DNA from: Isurus oxyrinchus
Taxonomy: Eukaryota
Direction of reading: 5' to 3'
Length of the DNA stretch: 64,000 nucleotides
NCBI GenBank assembly: GCA_026770705.1
Contig: JANJGN010000004.1
Span: forward strand, 43,958,001-44,022,000
This document shows, in pieces, positions 2,051-47,379 of this stretch. Each line of letters begins with the position of its first letter. Positions within the stretch are counted from its first letter, which is position 1. The translations under genes and the position numbers were made by a program. The notes beneath the pieces were generated by a model. The model was not told where the DNA came from, ran no database searches, and saw nothing but the letters and a program-made list of their open reading frames with translations.

Positions 2051-4764
2051 ATTCATTCATGGGATGTGAACTTCACTGGCTGGGCCAACATTTATTGCCC
2101 ATCCCTAGTTGCCCTCGAGAAGGTGGTGGTGAGCTGTCTTCTTGACCCGCTACAGTCCATGTGGTTTAGATACACCTATGATGCTGTTAGGAAGGGAGTT
2201 CCAGGATTTTGACCCAGCAGCAGTGAACGATGATATATTTCCAAGTCAGGTAGGTGAGTAACTTGGAAGGGGTAGTGTTCCAATCTATCTGCTGCCCTTG
2301 TCCATCTAGATGGTAGTGGTCGTGGGTTTGGAAGGCGCTGTCTAAGGAGCCTTGATGAATTCCTGCAGTGCATTTTGTAGATGTACACACTACCTGGTGG
2401 TGGTGGTGGGAGTGAATGAGGATGTGGTGCCAATCAAGTGGGCTGCTTTGTCCTGGACAGTGTCAAGCTTCTTGAGTGTTGTGGGAGCAGCACTCATCCA
2501 AGCAAGTAGGGAGTATTCCATCACACTCCTGACTTGTACCTTGTAGATGGTGGACAGGCTTTGGGGAGTCAGGAAGTGAATTAGTCCTCACAGCATTCCT
2601 ATCCTCTAACCTGCTTTTGTAGCCACAGTATTTATATGGTTAGTCCAGTTCAGTTTCTGGTCAATGGTAACCCCCAGGATGTTGATAGTGGGGGATTCAG
2701 TGATGGTAATGCCATTGAATGTCAAGGGCGATTGGTTACATTCTCTCTTGTCGGAGATGGTCATTGCCTGGCACCTGTGTGGCACGAATGTGACTTGCCA
2801 CTTATTAGCCTAAGTCTGGATATTATGCAGGTCTTGCTGTAATTGGACATAGATTGCTTCCGTGTCTGAGGAATGTTGCTGAACATTGGGCAATCATCAG
2901 CGAACATCTCCACTTCTGACCTTATGATGGAAGGAAGGTCATTGATGAAGTAGTTGAGGACACTACCCAGAAGAACTCCTGCAGTGATGTCCTGGAGCTG
3001 AGATGATTGACCTCCAACAACCACAAGCATCTTCCTTTGTGCTAGGTATGAATCCAACCAGGGGAGAGTTTCCCCCCGATTCCCGTTAACTCCAGTTTTG
3101 CTAGGGTTCCTTAGTGCCACAGTCAGTTAAATGCGGCCTTGATGTCAAGGCCAGTCACTCTCACCTCACCTCAGGAGTTCAGCTCTTCTGTCCGTGTTTG
3201 AACCGAGGCTGTAATAAGGTCAGGAGCTGAATGGCCCTGGCGGAACCCAAACTGGGCATCATTAAGTAGGCTATCACTAAGCAAGTGCTGCTTGATAGCA
3301 CTGTTGATGACCCCTTCCATTATTCCACTGATGATTGAGAGTAGACTGATGGGGCGGTAATTAGCCGGGTTGGATTTGTCCTGCATTTTGTGTACAGGAC
3401 AATTTTCCACATAGCTGGGTAGATGCCAGTGTTGTAGCTGTACTGGAACAGCTTGGTTAGGGGCATGGCAAGTTCTGGAGCACAAGTCCAGAACTATTGC
3501 CGGAATGTTGTCAGGGCCCATAGACTTTGCACTATCCAGTGCCTTCAGTTGTTTCTTTGATATCACATGGAATGAATCGAATTGGCTGAAGACTGGCATC
3601 TGTGATGCTGGGGACCTCTGGAGGAGACTGAGATGGATCATCCATCGGCACTTCTGGCCAAAGATTGTAGCAAAGACAATTGCACCTCTTGGATGCCCAG
3701 CCCTGAGTTGCTAGATCTGTTCAAAATCTATCCTATTTATCACGGTGGTAGTGCCACACAACACGATGGATCCTCAATGTGAAAGCAGGACTTTGTCTCC
3801 ACAATGGCCAGTCCTACTGAAACTGTCATGGACAGATGGATCTGCAGCAGGCAGGTTGGTGAACGTGAGGTCAAGTATGTTTTTCCCCTCACCACCTGCC
3901 GCAGACTCAGTCTGGCTGTTCGGCCGGTAGTGGTGCTACCTAACCAGTCTTGGCGATGGACATTAAAGTTCCCACCCATGTGCATTCTGCACCTTTGGTG
4001 CTTCCTCCAATGGGGTGTTCAACATGGAGGAGCACTGATTCCTCAGCTGAGGGCAGGGGGTGTGGGGGGGACAGGGTGGCATGTGATAATCAGCAGGATG
4101 TTTCCTTGTCCATGTATGACTGTTGCCATGAGACTTCATGGGGTCCAGTGTTGATGCTGAGGACTCCCAGGGCAACTCCCTCCCGACTGTGCTGCCACCT
4201 CTGTTGGGTCTGTCCTGCCAGTGGGACAGGACTTACCTAGGGATAATGATGGTGGTGTCTCAGATATTATCTGTTGCTTGACTAGTCTGAGACAGCTCTC
4301 CCAATTTTGGCACTAGACCCCAGATGTTAGTAAGGAGGACTTTGTAGGGTTGATTGGGCTGAGATTGCTGTTGTCTTTTCCGGTGCCTAATTGATGCCAA
4401 GTAGTCCATCTGGTTTCATTCGTTTTTTGTGACTTTGTATTGGTTTGATATAACTGAGAAACTGAGTGGCTTGCTGGGCCATTTCGGAGGGCATTTAGTG
4501 TTGACCACATTGCTGGATCACATGTAGGCCAGACCAGGTAAGGGCAGCAGATTTCCTTCCCTAAAGGACATTAGTGAACCAGATGGGTTTTTCCTACCAA
4601 TGAACAATGGTTTCATGGTCATCTTTATACATTTAATTACAGATTTTTATTGAATTCAAATTTCACCGTCATGTGGCGGGATTTGAACCCCGGTCCCCAG
4701 ACCATTACCCTGGGTCCCGGGATTACTAGTCCAAAGACAATACCATTATGCCATCACCTCCCCC
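2051..4764 (-). mobile_element. CR1/L2-group LINE with APE endonuclease and RT remnants, tRNA-like 5' head
   Basis: NIWGL endonuclease start, GNFNVH, KSMGPDNIP, NPANYRPISLLS, QFGFRQGHS, FADD. 3' tail ...cacatcccatgaatgaat. A box TGGCATAATGG and B box GGTTCAAATCC at the 5' end. Confidence 0.9.
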
Positions 4765-5505: not shown

Positions 5506-5678
5506 TATAGAGACCTGTACTGTTGCATCTTGTGAATAATCCTACCCACAAGGAAAAGATCTGTGCCTTGTTTCATGCTTCAGCTCTTGGCGTGAATCCA
5601 TTTAACATTAGTCATGTTGTTAACACTCCATGTCCCACCAAGGGAGGCACTGCAGAACCACCACTGGCTTGAGGGTAT

Positions 5679-8600
5679 TGTTACAACATATCCCCGAGTG
5701 AGATCACCCAATTTGTAAAGATCCCAGACGAGATACTCCAAATTGTTAACGTCCCGAATGGGATCCCAATTTTGTTATGCTCCCAGGTGAGGAGGAGTGA
5801 GCTGGCTCCCCTTCTTTATTCAATCCCCTTGGTTGGTCGCAACAAGGTTAATTTTAAAAAGATCCCTTCCTTGGTGGATACATTTTCCGAGTCCAATATG
5901 CATTAAAAGGAACCAATTTAACCAGGCTTTCTTGAGTCAAAGAAAGAGTAAGTTTATTAGTTACTAAAAATCCAAGAAAAAAAATACAAACACAATGCAC
6001 ACACTCACAGATCAAAAATGAGAAGTTGAGTCCAAAAAAAAGTTTTTAAAAAGATATACAAATCAGTCTTTGGCTTGTCCGTGAGGAGTAAATGGTGAAA
6101 TGTTGCAGCCATTTAATTGGGTGATTCCGGTAGAGCTGACTTTGGCAGTTGAGCAGTTGGTTTAGAGACACTTGGTTCTGCAGATTAGCTGAAGGAGCTG
6201 TCCTGTTTCCTTTTTGACTGTGGCTTTACTGACTTGCCTCCAGCCAGAGAAAGAAAGAGATCTATTTTTACCTGCATGCTATATGGAAGCCTAGTTGATG
6301 TTCTTCTACTGTAACCTTCACAGCACACATTAGCACACCACAGCAAGAACATACAGATCAGGTAGCTTTTTTTTAAACCCATTTCCTTGTGTATTCCTGG
6401 AAGGGGGAAAAAAAACAAACATGTCTTTCGCCTAGAATCTGCTTTCTTTCAACTCAGACCATTTCCACATTCTGAGATATAACCCAGCAGGGGATGGTTT
6501 CTGCTGAGATGTGGTAATCAGTCTCCATTGTCTCTGCAAACACAGGAGATTAACTTCGCTATCTCGATGTCTTTTGCATTGCATCTCTGCCTTTCAAGTG
6601 CCTGTGTCTAAAGTAGGCCTTGACACCTTTTTTAGGTGTCACATTCCATGCTCTCTTTGAACTAGTTGGTCAAGTATAATCCACATAGGAATTTTCCAGA
6701 AAGTGGTCACTTTATAGTCTCAACCAACTTTTGCGTGTATACCCTATTTAAAAAAACATATGTAATACTTAAAAAGTTCAGTATGTCCATAAATAATTCA
6801 TGGCTGTGATCCGCTGTCATGACACTTCCCCCACATGCCAATGAAATGAGAGTCATTCTCATTTCATTACAAAGGGAGGAAAAAATTATAAAACAACAAA
6901 AACACTCATACACACATTCATTCTCATAGCCTTTGTCCATATTATCTGTTTAGTTCTAACCAGGTCTCTTTAAGTTCTGGACAGGGCGGCTGAAATCACA
7001 TTTGATTTCCCAGCAATGTGGGTGATTTTTAGGTGGTATGGTTGGAGAAACAAACACCACCAGAATAACCTGGCATTCTGTGCCTTTAACTTTTCGACAA
7101 AGGTTAACAGGTTGTGGTCAGTATCGACTGTGGTCTCTCTGTATCCATTTCAGACATATATCTCAAAGTGTTTGAGAGCCAGTAATAATTTGAGTTTCAT
7201 TCTCCACTGTGGAGTACCTTTTTTGATGCTTGTTTAGTTTTTTGAAGAAGTACCTGATTGGTCTCTCCACACTTGATTTGTCTTCCTGGAGGAAGATAGG
7301 CGCTTTCTCGATGTCACTTGCATTAACAGCTATTTTAAATGCTTGGTTAAAGTTTGGAGCTGCAAGCACAGGCTCACCTATTAAAATAGCTCTCAGCTTT
7401 TTGAAATCTGTCTGGCATTTCTCAGTCAACACCACCTTTACCTTTTTCTGTAGTAGGTCTATCAGCAGAGCTACTATTGTGCTGAAGTTTGAGGCAAACT
7501 TGCGGTAGAACCCACACATCCCCAAGAAACACATGATTTTCATCTTGTTGTGGGAATAGGGAACTCTGCTACTGCTTGTACCTTTGCTGTCCTGGGCAGT
7601 ACTTGTCCTTGACCCACGACGTGTCCTAGATAGGTCACCGAATTCACTCTTTGTGAGATTGACCACTAGGTCTGCTGACTGCTTTCTGCAAGAGGTCTTC
7701 CAGTTGCTCTAAGTGAGTTTCCCAGGTGTCACTGTACACTAGGAGGTTGTCTTTGGTACACCAATCAATTGGAGAAGCCCACTGTTATCTGATTCATCAG
7801 CCTTTGAAAGGTGTTTGGGGTATTTCAGAATCCAAATGGCATGACTCAACACTGGTATAACGCATCCTGTGTTACAAAGATGGAGATTTCCTTTGCGTGG
7901 GTGATCAAGGGAACCTGCCAGTATCCCTTGAATAAATCTATCGTTGTAATGTAGACTGCTTTACCTACCCTATCTCTGCAGTCTTCCAGATGGAGTATTG
8001 GGTAGGAGTCAGCTCTGGTCACTGCATTAACTTTTTGGTAGTCTATATAGAACTTTGTGGAGCTGTCTAGTTTGGGTTTGAGCAGGAGCTCCAGCTACTG
8101 CTGCTAGGCTCTATTAGTTGGTGCTCCAGCATGCAGTTAATCTCCTCTCAAACCTGGGCCAACTTCTCTGGGCCTAGGCAATAGGGATGTTGTCTTATGG
8201 GAGGGGCCTCTCCCACATCCACATCATGCAGCGCTAGTGTGGTTCAAACTGGCTTGTCTTTGCATAAGCCTTTAAATGCAGTGAGCAGCCTTGTCAAGTC
8301 TGCTCATTGTTCTGCCACTTAGGTATGTGAATAAGGAATCTAAGTTAACTAGTACCTCTGTGCTGGTTAGCCGGGAGTAGTGGGTTGAATGTGGGCTTCA
8401 CTAATGCATCCCTCGAATTCATCTCCACTGCTACCCTCATCCTCTAGGTCAGTGGCAACTGGCAGATCGTTGGCCACCCATTTTCAAATTTTGGGTTTTC
8501 TGTCTTTCGGGCAAAATTCTAAACCTAAGTGCCTTGCTAGCTCTTTTAACTATTTGAGGGACAGAAATTTTAAATCCTCAAAAGTAACATCCCCTTCTCC

Positions 8601-42769: not shown

Positions 42770-44114
42770 CAGTTTGGGTTCTGCCAGGGACACTCAGTTT
42801 CTGACCTCATTACAGCCTTGGTTCAAACATGGACAAAAGAGCTGGACTGCACAAGTGAGGTGAGAGTGACTACCCTTGACAACAAGCCTGCATTTGAACG
42901 AGTGTGGCATCAAGCAACCCTAGCAAAACTGGAGTCATACCTTGCACAAAGGCAGATGGTTGTGGTTGTTGGAGATCAATGATCTCAGCTCCAGGACAAC
43001 ACTGCAGGAGTTCCTCACGGCAGTGTCCTAGGCCCAGCCATCTTCAGCTGCTTCATCAATGACCTTCCTTCCATCATAAGGTCAGAAGTGGGGATGTTTG
43101 CTGATTATTGCACAATGTTCAACATCATTCACGTCTTCTCAGATGCTGAAGCAGTTCATGTCCAAATGCATCAAGACTTGGACAATATCCAGACTTGAGC
43201 TGACAAGTGGCAAGTAACATTCATGCCACTCAAGTATCAGGCAATGACCATCCCCAACAAAAGAGGATCTAATCATCACCCTTTGACATTCGATAGCATT
43301 ACCATTGCTGAATCCCCCATTATCAATATCCTGGGGGTTACCGTTAACCAGAAACTGAACTGGACTAGCAATATAAAAACTGTGGCTACAAGAGTGAGTC
43401 AGAGGCTAGGAATCCTTTGGCGAGTAACTCTCCTCCTTAATCCCCAAAGCCTGTTCGCTATCTAGCCAGGAGTATGATGGAATACTCTCCACTTGCCTGG
43501 ATGAATGCAGCTCCCACAACACTCAAGAAGCTTGACACCATGCAGGACAAAAAGCCCCCATCTACAAACATTCACTCCCCCTACCACCAATGCACAGTGG
43601 TAGCAGTAGGTACCATCTACAAGATACACTGCAGAAACTCACCAAGGCTCCTTAGGCAGCACCCACCAAACCCACAACATCAACCCTCTAGAAGGACAAG
43701 GGCAGCAAATACATTGGAAAACCACCACCTGGAAGTTCCCCTCCAAGCCGTTCACCATCCTGACTAGGAAATATATCACCGTTCCTTCATTGTCACTGGG
43801 TCAAAATCCTAGAACGCCCTCCCTAACAGCACTGTGGGTGTCCTATACCACATAGACTGCAGTGGTTCAAGAAGGCAGCTCACCACCACCACCTTCTCAA
43901 GGGAAACTAGGAATGGGTAATGAATGCTGGCTTAGCCGGGGACACCCACATCCAGTGAATGAATAAAAAAACAGTGAAGTTAGTGTTAGCATTGACTACA
44001 ATGATGCATCCTGTTACTTGCCATTGCTCGTAGTGGGAAGGAACAAAGTCTCCCTGATGGGAAGAAATTGGCTTAAGAAAATACAGTTAAACTGGGCTAA
44101 GTTATTTACAATAG

Positions 44115-45096
44115 TGTCATGATAATGAAGGAAAAACACCGATTTGCGTATGGAAATATTGGACTTTAAAAAATAAGACCTGAGTTATTAGAAATGCACA
44201 CAAGCCACTGGCTGGAGTGCTGCAGGTTGACTCCCTAAGAGGTAATGTTGCCAGACAAGGTACTGCTTAAGACATCCAGAAACTAATTGCTCCCTCCAGA
44301 AGAGACAATGGGACATAATGGAGATGAGAATCATTTCATGAAGAAATCCAAGAGCAATGCCCAGGCAGGTTTGTGAATTCACTTCCCGCTTGAAATATAC
44401 AAAGAAGTGGTTAAAAGTGAGCAGAAAAGCAGCCCCGGTGTCGGTTTGTTGGTGGGTGTTCTGAGAGAGAGCAAGTGCTGGAAGTTTGACTCAGAAGTAA
44501 AAGCCGCACACAGTACCCCTGCAAATCGCCATTTTGCAGGCATCCTGATCTCTCTCCCTCTGTACCAGAGTCAACTCTACTGGAACCTCAAATCTGGCTA
44601 TTCGTCTACTGGAATCAATTCTATTGGAATCTCGAATTGCAACAGCTGCAACGCTCAATCATCTACTCCCCACGAGTCAAGGACTGTTCCGTATAGCTTT
44701 TTTTATATACACATATATATATATTCACTTACTTCAAGCTAAATTCTTATTTTTAACCTGTTGGACTGTATATGCATGTGTTTTAGCATCTCTTGCTTTA
44801 GTAGTTAATAAACTTACTTTTACTCTTAACTCAAGAAAGTCTGATCAAATTGGCTCCTTCAAAACCAGGACAGTTGAGTCTGGGTAAAAGGTATCTGTGA
44901 AAGGGATCCTTTTTAGATTAAATCTTGTTGTGACCAACAAAAGGGGGAGAGGGCTGAATAAAGACAGGGGGCCAGTTCATCCCCTCTCACCCGGGGCATA
45001 ACAATTTGGGGGTGTCCCAGCCAGACAGTGACAATTTGAGGGGTCTCACCTGGATCAACAACTTTGGGGAACCTCACCTGGGGGTGGGTTGTAACG
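44115..45096 (+). mobile_element. Solo LTR with a terminal array of PBS-like units
   Basis: TGTCATG...GTAACG. Perfect 4-bp TSD ATAG/ATAG. 3' end homologous to the LTRs of 5679-9769. Confidence 0.88.
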
Positions 45097-46689
45097 ATAG
45101 GAGTTAGTGAGAGTATGCCTGACATTGAGAAATTGCTAAGAGAGCACAAAGTGATAAAATTGGGCATCAAAAGGCTGAAATCAAGATAAAGGACAATGTC
45201 ATCCAACATTTTGCAAGCCTGGGCCAGTGCCCCGTGCACAGTTAGGAGCAGCAAGTAAAGCACTGGATAGGTTAGTAAGAACAGATACAATTAAAAATGA
45301 AAAATAAAATGAGTGGTCCCATTTTTGCACACTCACTTAACGTATCAATATCTCTGTAATCTTATGCTACTTACTTTCTTCTATGCTACTTACTATGTCA
45401 CCAATCTTTTGGAAAACCTGAATATATGGCTCTCTATTGCATTACTCAAGTCATAAATAAATATAATAAATAGTTGAGATCAGGGCCCAGGAGAAGGGAT
45501 GTACAATATGCAAAACATCAGGGTCCATGCCAAAGGGGGGGCCCTGCCTCAAGCAAATATTTTGCACATGCATGACACCGACAAATCCTCCTTTTCTATA
45601 TCAAAAAACATAATATTAACCTGCTGGATTGGTAGTATTAACCCTGGGACAATTTAGGCAGTTTGCGTAAAACCTCATTGCCTCATACATTCAAGTTTTC
45701 TGAATTTGTCATTTCCCTGTCTTTGGCTAGACAGAGAGAAGGCGAGGGAGGAACATACCATCTCATGAGGCATCCAAGGCAGTGTTGGGCTACTAATGAC
45801 ATCATTGAGAAACTCTTATTTTGAATATTAGAAGCTGATTGGTGGACAACAGAGGTTACTACAAGATACATTCTGAACAAAGAATGTGATGAGTGAATGG
45901 TATTTTGTGGACTATATGGATATACATACACTTAAATACATTTATATATATATATATGCAATACAAGGATTTTACTGTAAATATAATGGTACAAGACTGG
46001 TACATGAAGCGTGTTCTGCCATAGTTGATGATATAGATTTTGATTGTAGATAGCTTAAAGTTTTTACCCTTTTTTTCTGCAATATCTGTGACAACTGAAA
46101 CACAAATGTGACACCTACATATTGAGTATGAATTGATCAGTTATATATATCAAACATAATTGTCTTAATGTTATTATGAGGACATTATCATTATAAAAAA
46201 TCTTAAATTGAAGTCAGTGCTGCAATTGTGATGATGTGTCTGAACATGCCAGCGAGCATGCTCACTTGATCAGCTTAAAAGTGACCACCCACATATGGGA
46301 TTTTCGGTTGGGGGTGTGTGGGCTGAAACAGATTTTGGAGCAGACAAATCTGCAGGTTGCCAAGTACAGAAGCAGACTGAGCAAAAGGCCTGACTCTGTG
46401 CACCAGCACTGTGTTTAAATAAATAAAAAAATAAAACAATAAAATCCCTCCAACCCTCACCCCCTCATACACTCCCTATGCCCAATCCATGCAAATCTAC
46501 ACCTCACCCACCCTCCATGGCCCCCACACTCCTATGTAAATTTAGTGCCCCACTACACAGCCCATTGTACCCATACTCCCTATGCCAACTTAGTGCCACC
46601 CCATGCCCACATCACCCTTTGCCTTTACCCCAAATTGCCGATTTACTATCCTTGGACAGTTCCTTGATAGCTTTGACACTTTTCCTAGA

Positions 46690-46975
46690 TATTTTTGATA
46701 GATTTGACAGCTCCTTAACATTTTCTTGACAGCTGGACAGTTCCTGGACAGCTGGACATCTCCTGGACAATTGGACAGCTAGACAGTTACTGGACAGTTG
46801 GACAGTTCCTGGACAGCGGGACATCTCCTGGGAAGCTAGACAGTTCCTGAATAGCTAGACAGTTCCTGGACAGTTGGACAGTTCCTCAACAGCTGGACAT
46901 CTCCTGGACAGCTGGACAATTCGTGGACAGCTGGATACCTCTTTCACAGTTGGACACCTCTTTTACAGCTTGACA
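46690..46975. repeat. Minisatellite of ctggacag(ttc)-like 8-11 bp units
   Basis: More than 20 degenerate copies of (c/t)tggacag/ctggacatctc. Confidence 0.85.
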
Positions 46976-47379
46976 GCTCCAGTGAGTTTATGCATAAAAA
47001 GTACATAGTTCTGTTCACTTTCAACAACCCCAAAGGGTGCCTTACCTCTCCCAAGAGTGTCTTGGAACTGTATCCAAATGGCTACTTTACCTTTCCAAAG
47101 GGGTACCCTGGCTATCCATAAGAATCCATCAAGTTCAGACCTCCTCTTACCTATTCTAATCTGCACACAATCCATGTGCCTGTTCTTCCAAAATCTCACT
47201 TTAGTAGAGGTAGCTGGTGATTTAAATGGCAGCTGCCTCCATGAATAACACATATGCAAACCTTGGGCCAACTCTGGGAAGATGGAAATTCCAGGTTCAG
47301 GGGTGGAATTTAGAACTTGTGGCAATTTTTGGATTTTTGCCATGACAAAGGGGCTCTCCTTCATGGCAAAAATCCAGAC

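Follow-up and report, generated by a model that had tools for sequence, protein, structure and literature searches.

During plus-strand strong-stop synthesis, reverse transcriptase first copies U5 and continues into the attached tRNA, where it stops at m1A58. In dual-PBS laboratory HIV-1, a pair of primer-binding sites (PBSs) for two tRNAs was reportedly derived in culture. This virus (cited in PMC11181671) and Drosophila Gypsy, whose RNA carries two PBSs at 5′ and 3′ sites (PMC1635307), resemble the elements considered here in having more than one tRNA-complementary site per element; in neither, as far as these accounts extend, are the sites arranged in tandem within the LTR together with copies of its end. 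Another report describes read-through of m1A58 in HIV-1, with a second stop at position 54, and tRNA read-through inserts of 7–54 nt at aberrant second-strand-transfer junctions of HIV-1 proviruses (PMC12657518). The feature common to this delayed second-strand transfer and to the present elements would be the entry of primer-tRNA sequence from beyond the m1A58 stop into the provirus via a misdirected plus strand; the HIV-1 proviruses in that account are defective and deleted, whereas here a landing upstream, which we infer, would have given duplications, with products amplified as subfamilies.

According to two further reports, integrase placed before RT-RNase H is a mark of Gmr1-like Ty3/gypsy elements (10.1101/2025.03.03.638093; PMC8220671). 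Common to these elements and the present ones are this domain order, LTRs of the form TG..CA, a capsid resembling SCAN, a tRNA PBS and, preceding the 3′ LTR, a purine tract; the variable array inside the LTR end and, in subfamily A, a second PBS unit outside it are features of the present clade that the text consulted does not mention. In the literature searched, which excluded most subscription journals and Repbase reports, LTRs with PBS-plus-end units in tandem are nowhere described. The array is a variation on known reverse-transcription errors.

The window LTR and its element

The window, i.e., the whole 64-kb stretch of Isurus oxyrinchus DNA that was analysed, contains an LTR flanked by two copies of ATAG (Table 1). 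The ATAG pair and the coordinates of the units bear out the claim of an earlier note on this DNA that a solo LTR with target-site duplications (TSDs) ends here in three units; the right ATAG, directly 3′ of the third unit, likewise places the array inside the LTR. Directly upstream of the units lies CATAACA (44997–45003). Each unit begins with a spacer of 2–3 nt and a G-rich stretch and ends in ACA or, in the last unit, ACG; this copy thus ends in CG, and most relatives in CA. The unit lengths given earlier hold in part: three ACA-type units are present, and the second has 27 nt, one G having been missed. The description of a unit as TGG followed by a tRNA complement suits the window units poorly, with u2 starting in TGA and the tRNA match of u1 at shuffle level.

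Table 1. Features of the window LTR, in window coordinates
Feature	Position	Strand	Basis
Left 4-bp target-site duplication, ATAG	44111..44114	+	Window sequence; relatives also have 4-bp TSDs
Solo LTR, 982 bp, subfamily A, Gmr1-like Ty3/gypsy	44115..45096	+	Relatives; internal domains of full copies
AATAAA, candidate poly(A) signal	44957..44962	+	
"Unit 0" end, older LTR-end-like stretch ending in CATAACA	44986..45003	+	Register with tRNA-Pro complement in sister subfamilies
Inner unit 1 (u1), 30 nt, PBS-like start, ACA end, tRNA match at shuffle level	45004..45033	+	
Inner unit 2 (u2), 27 nt, decayed PBS-like, Pro or Cys, marginal	45034..45060	+	
Terminal unit (TA), 36 nt, PBS-like start, carries the real LTR end	45061..45096	+	
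Right target-site duplication, ATAG	45097..45100	+	Window sequence

The array starts about 40 nt downstream of the AATAAA and is therefore likely to represent U5; further poly(A)-type hexamers are found at 44807 and 44917. The junction motif ACAAYTTKRGGG occurs three times in the window, always at the array (0.25 occurrences expected), a count reached by none of 100 shuffles; its significance is overstated, since the motif was derived from the very junctions being tested. The recurrence of the array throughout the family is better evidence for it.

A genome search returned 2634 candidates, 40 of which were scored; LTR relatives are 75–85% identical to the window LTR over the LTR length. The element is a Gmr1-like Ty3/gypsy retrotransposon, as indicated by a SCAN domain and by integrase preceding RT. 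In L041, the one element on which this order is based, Integrase_H2C2 at 4139 and weak matches to rve (4504) and to the integrase C-terminal domain (4934) are located upstream of RVT_1 (5626–6051) and RNase H (6100–6513), with the 3′ LTR starting at 6844. A SCAN-like capsid domain was found in 2 of 5 elements scanned; the score of L181 (subfamily B) is above the cut-off (30.4 bits), and that of L175 (subfamily A) below it (E 2.5e-4). The pieces of L041 scanned lack SCAN, and the decayed pieces scanned for domains gave no Pfam protease match. A class I endogenous retrovirus with a PBS for tRNA-Pro, for which the pol order PR-RT-RH-IN and an env would be expected, was ruled out: in L041, integrase precedes RT, and the 3′ LTR begins about 330 bp past RNase H.

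The copies are old: within single elements, the 5′ LTR shares about 78–85% identity with the 3′ LTR, terminal branches in the LTR tree measure 0.06–0.13, and most RT matches contain stops. The LTR family is extinct. The window LTR interrupts a decayed reading frame (43967–44114 and 45101–45340) that may resemble the protease-RT region of an older LTR retrotransposon, and about 11 copies of a GGACAG-rich 19-bp tandem repeat occupy window positions 46724–46980.

Variation of the array and position of the LTR end

Tiling of 171 distinct LTR ends with unit exemplars, which are single real copies, left 8 ends unassigned. In subfamily A, to which the window LTR belongs, 63 of 67 ends read u1-u2-TA and the remaining 4 have internal deletions; behind the 5′ LTRs of this subfamily, two further units, P and then EA, lie outside the LTR (24 complete cases). 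The same LTR in sister subfamilies ends in b-T, c-T, T alone, b-c-T, c-x-T or, in a single TSD-bounded solo LTR (L207), T-P-T. The 1–3 inner units found inside the LTR across the clade are of differing types, and their number per LTR, which the earlier note expected to vary, is indeed not fixed, except within subfamily A. Exact matches to a 19–20-nt anchor numbered 598 and, for subfamily A, 117. Among the first 30 of the 117, 28 have all three units; the first 30 of the 598, a sample drawn independently of array content, comprise 7 c-T, 8 b-T, 8 b-c-T-like and 2 T ends, 1 c/T chimera, 2 ends scored as having b alone, and 2 without assignment. A generic tandem-PBS pattern gave 50 matches, mainly copies of subfamily A, versus 8 in the control. 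One Pro site is present in more distant Gmr1-like families (11 of 20 regions yielded a site, all single).

The LTR tree was built, with the array removed, from 70 copies of 800–1200 nt with a located 5′ start, subfamily A being thinned to 24. In it, subfamily A is a distant clade with a fixed array, and B is a supported clade with one b-c copy weakly placed at its base; in group C, where resolution is poor, T, c-T, c-x-T and T-P-T copies are intermingled, which fits recurrent gain and loss, or exchange of U3 and U5 between co-packaged RNAs. The same type of terminal unit is last in A, B and C, TA being the homolog of T in all sister subfamilies. Varying units precede it or, in A, follow it outside the LTR. 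Deletion chimeras among the LTR ends include L033, L090 and L190, as well as L354 and L376, which are chimeras of neighbouring units.

These observations bear on the proposal that U5 had been extended outward step by step. Its description of the units as a tRNA-primer complement joined to an LTR-like end can be retained; a retained primer with a newly made att end finds no support, as the terminal type is last in all subfamilies and inner ends look like duplicates of older ends. A CRISPR-like record, in which varied spacers are added in a polar manner between constant repeats, is also at odds with a single tRNA source, unit addition before or after the terminal unit, and losses by deletion.

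Exact 4-nt TSDs directly follow the last unit in 35 of the 77 copies that have a located start and no leader behind them; the other 42 include several in which the TSD has decayed or which represent the 3′ LTR of a full element. At inner ends, TSD matches number 3 of 176, each shifted by 1 nt while the LTR continues. No LTR ending at the first CATAACA was found among targeted candidates (0/6 from the 117 matches and 0/12 from the 598), the filters being estimated to catch only about half of true ends. The L388 LTR breaks after unit 1, without a TSD. With LTR ends and TSDs located at the last unit, nothing indicates that the inner units are used in priming or processing, and the suggestion that inner ACA ends serve as alternative sites gains nothing from the 0/18 targeted candidates.

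Because the LTR of subfamily A ends directly before P, P is likely the primer site in use there. The median predicted duplex of P with the last 24 nt of tRNA-Pro is −33.6 kcal/mol (EA, −25.2); with 18 nt the values are −22.1 for P versus −25.2 for EA. No LTR was found to extend through P (0/11), all 11 pattern-found P units preceding the old PBS. The array shows no special fold relative to shuffles (z +1.2). Silencing of inner units by self-folding of their starts was considered and dropped, as local fold energies disagree between unit types. There is no evidence of array function, and the inner units are likely tolerated leftovers.

Another Pro-primed LTR family, family D (L403, L408, L411, L427, L442, L447, L449 and L409), has no BLAST match to the window LTR. 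Its leader contains two PBS-like units, the first of which matches the tRNA in some copies and is diverged in others, and its LTR end resembles the tail of unit c.

Composition of the units and their match to tRNA-Pro

The tRNA genes, taken from the same genome, represent 18 classes and 14 amino acids (Ile, Met, Ser, Thr, Trp and Tyr are missing); six ARAGORN labels corresponding to decayed Pro, Arg or Val genes, or doubtful, were removed. We relied on a family-wise test, in which the best of the 18 classes is compared with shuffles for 8 copies of each unit type and the major Pro variant, rather than on the per-copy comparison, in which the shuffled-Pro control may have used the minor variant. 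Pro is the best tRNA for 27/27 copies of P, 32/34 of c, 25/26 of EA and 10/13 of E. Of 100 shuffles, none reached the observed best for c, E and EA, and one did for P; the remaining types follow with 3 (u2), 4 (b), 7 (T), 10 (TA) and 40 (u1). The longest uninterrupted match of P to the Pro complement spans 19 bases and extends six bases beyond the 18-nt PBS into the T-loop. For u2, the scores of Cys (9.0) and Pro (8.8) are close, and a unit-to-unit comparison places it nearest to the Pro-derived x, c and P of relatives; for u1, the top tRNA is Gln in 28/65 copies and Arg-ACG in 18/65.

As judged from these alignments, every assignable unit type corresponds to tRNA-Pro, and a second tRNA is without support. 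The suggestion that different tRNAs are represented therefore finds no support among the 18 classes: all clear types are Pro, and Gln comes up only for u1, at a score matched by the 40/100 shuffles. Because shuffles reach u1, TA and u2 at the above rates, the window units alone would not pass as tRNA copies; those of relatives and the neighbouring ones do, by the same measure.

Regarding the tRNA genes themselves, many tRNA-Pro genes (AGG, TGG and CGG) contain an anticodon-loop intron of 14–20 nt (L083–L085, L094–L110 and L113, on C13, C14, C21, C37, C40, C50 and C73 of G000), and intron-less ones are found on C7, C9, C11 and C18. More than 80 tandem tRNA-Gly(GCC) genes with a period of about 1.85 kb occupy 39.78–39.93 Mb of G000 C1, and arrays of His and Asp tRNAs are located on C21.

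A Pro core with tRNA spacing is present in 25/34 copies of c (9 unmeasurable), 14/27 of P (13 unmeasurable) and 1/2 of x, and the core of the leader-adjacent PBS carries 2–3 extra bases in 7/13 copies of E and 15/26 of EA, the rest being unmeasurable. Since c, P and x have the tRNA spacing and the adjacent PBS has not, these units are, on the evidence of spacing, not copies of the usual adjacent PBS. The diagnostic base, at which the tRNA complement differs from the unit-0 end, is the tRNA-type T in 21/34 copies of c, 18/27 of P and 31/45 of b, as well as in x; it is the unit-0-type C in 66/88 copies of T, 39/69 of TA and 44/68 of u2. The tail resembles that of unit 0 in 26/34 copies of c and the tRNA T-loop in 23/27 of P. 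In register from the ACA anchor, P agrees with the Pro complement at 17 of 19 positions, c and x at 14, and b at 13, and the last 19 nt of unit 0 at a median of 13/19 in B/C and 8/19 in A; none of 385 other AACA-ending 19-mers of the window reaches 13. The units u1, u2, T and TA, like unit 0 of A, are out of the Pro register (6–9 of 19).

Likeness to unit 0 is strong for c, whose score no control reached (0/380), and modest for T (1/380) and for TA (4/380), in which the PBS-like start is joined to a likely duplicate of the unit-0 end. The scores of u1 and u2 were reached by 222/380 and 103/380 controls, respectively, and b and P also lack likeness to unit 0 when aligned against controls. Taken together, the units appear to be chimeric, one part being copied from a tRNA and the other derived from an older LTR end. 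Several unit types of the relatives indeed look tRNA-copied, as the idea of retained primer sequence implied, in their spacing, T-loop complement and Pro scores. The 5′ LTRs of L412 and L414 are followed by a PBS that has the tRNA spacing and not the usual inserted form (2/19 matches), showing that the PBS at times descends from the tRNA copy of the plus strand.

Origin and meaning of the array

The observed array varies among subfamilies, matches tRNA-Pro in most unit types of relatives, is made up of chimeric units and is followed by the LTR boundary. We are inclined, with moderate confidence, to the explanation that it was generated by slip-back of reverse transcriptase during copying of the proline-tRNA primer, a step that we infer. 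During plus-strand synthesis, the enzyme would stall on the attached tRNA; the stalled 3′ end, a tRNA copy, could then slip back to an upstream look-alike LTR end and recopy from there, a realignment made possible by its resemblance, in register, to the upstream ends. The product would read [tRNA copy][old end tail][recopied units]. A crossover at about 7–10 nt would give type T/TA (the third window unit), one at 18 nt, the m1A58 stop, type c, and one at 21–24 nt, after T-loop read-through, type P. Such a product would at first be present only in the 5′ LTR and in the next round in both, so that the terminal unit would stay last. Landing on the terminal unit itself would place the new unit outside the LTR, as with P in subfamily A, and this outer unit likely became the primer site in use. 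Deletions between adjacent units would trim the array, as in L354 and L376.

Slip-back is favoured by the tRNA spacing of c, P and x, the diagnostic bases, the Pro register and the inherited tRNA copies of L412 and L414. In addition, the T-P-T end of L207 corresponds to the predicted one-step product, the L354 and L376 chimeras point to exchange between units, and the HIV-1 read-through inserts offer a precedent by analogy. Against slip-back, the window units are the weakest ones (u1 has no likeness to a tRNA or to unit 0, u2 is divided between Cys and Pro, and TA is reached by 10/100 shuffles), the model accounts neither for u1 nor for the lack of priming at well-matching inner units (c, x, and P in L207), T-P-T was seen only once, and the inserts of HIV, as an analogy, go with deletions rather than duplications. 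Only three of the six bases of the P tail are independent of the landing-site AAC; because a T-loop-like TTTGAA also trails the single PBS of other families (L399–L417, L427, L442 and L447), this tail might go back to an older ancestor, although it is missing from E and EA. In subfamily A, the first 7 nt of P carry two changes, repaired in 0/26 copies, which is odd for a primer site in use.

The strongest competitor, which we nevertheless regard as fairly unlikely, is that the element's own [LTR end + PBS] repeats slipped or recombined in the ordinary way, the tRNA not being copied anew and the spacing coming from PBS-repaired parents or an ancestral perfect PBS. The units are homologous direct repeats of 27–36 nt, the five deletion chimeras and the repaired PBSs of L412 and L414 exist, and T-only, c-T and c-x-T copies fall among one another in the LTR tree, all in keeping with this explanation. 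However, each of c, x, P and b would need its own rare parent with a repaired PBS. This explanation also leaves the P tail from the T-loop without a source, no such tail following the PBS in L412, L414, E or EA, and does not predict the crossover at exactly nucleotide 18 in c.

Outward growth, in which priming moved to a downstream PBS or the primer was retained, with the former PBS enclosed and a new att end formed each time, seems improbable. The two PBS units outside the LTR in subfamily A would be a substrate for such a shift; two PBS-like units are likewise present in the family D leader, in L409 a PBS is succeeded by an ACA end and then by unrelated sequence (its 5′ end was not located, so it lends no TSD-based support), and the oldest step, from unit 0 to T, could fit. 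Yet the terminal unit type is identical in A, B and C, none of the 11 pattern-found P units forms an LTR end, and none of the 18 targeted candidates ends at unit 0.

Less probable still is selection for the array, with tRNA-Pro-complementary sites recruiting the primer, pairing with the T-loop or acting as decoys for 3′ tRNA fragments. Every sampled subfamily does have at least one inner unit and a high copy number (598 and 117 anchor matches), and the duplexes predicted between inner units and the 3′ end of tRNA-Pro (median −17 to −24 kcal/mol, a range without a shuffled control) are comparable in strength to those of the leader PBS (−21 to −25). Unit number and sequence nevertheless vary freely, distant families thrive with one Pro site, and the array folds no better than shuffles. 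Finally, a spacer-like record of priming by Pro, Gln, Cys and Arg tRNAs, to which the Gln and Arg-ACG matches of u1 and the Cys/Pro tie of u2 might be taken to point, is highly improbable, given a u1 score at chance over the 18 classes of a test set lacking the six amino acids listed above, the likeness of u2 to Pro-derived x, c and P, and the Pro identity of all clear types.

U5 and the PBS are usually seen as one fixed junction; here, tRNA-derived modules have been repeatedly gained and lost, in a vertebrate retrotransposon clade that nevertheless grew to hundreds or thousands of copies. Programs that call LTR boundaries and PBSs are misled by such arrays. If slip-back is the true cause, an error seen in defective HIV-1 proviruses can also play a constructive part, and the sites at which reverse transcriptase stops on modified tRNA bases can be read from genomic fossils. 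A further reading, which we offer tentatively as a possibility, is that the LTR end is a heritable log of these stops (at about 7–10 nt, at 18 nt for m1A58 and at 21–24 nt in the T-loop), one capture having become the working primer site of subfamily A. Were it true, the elements would have a natural route to renew a decayed PBS and rebuild U5.
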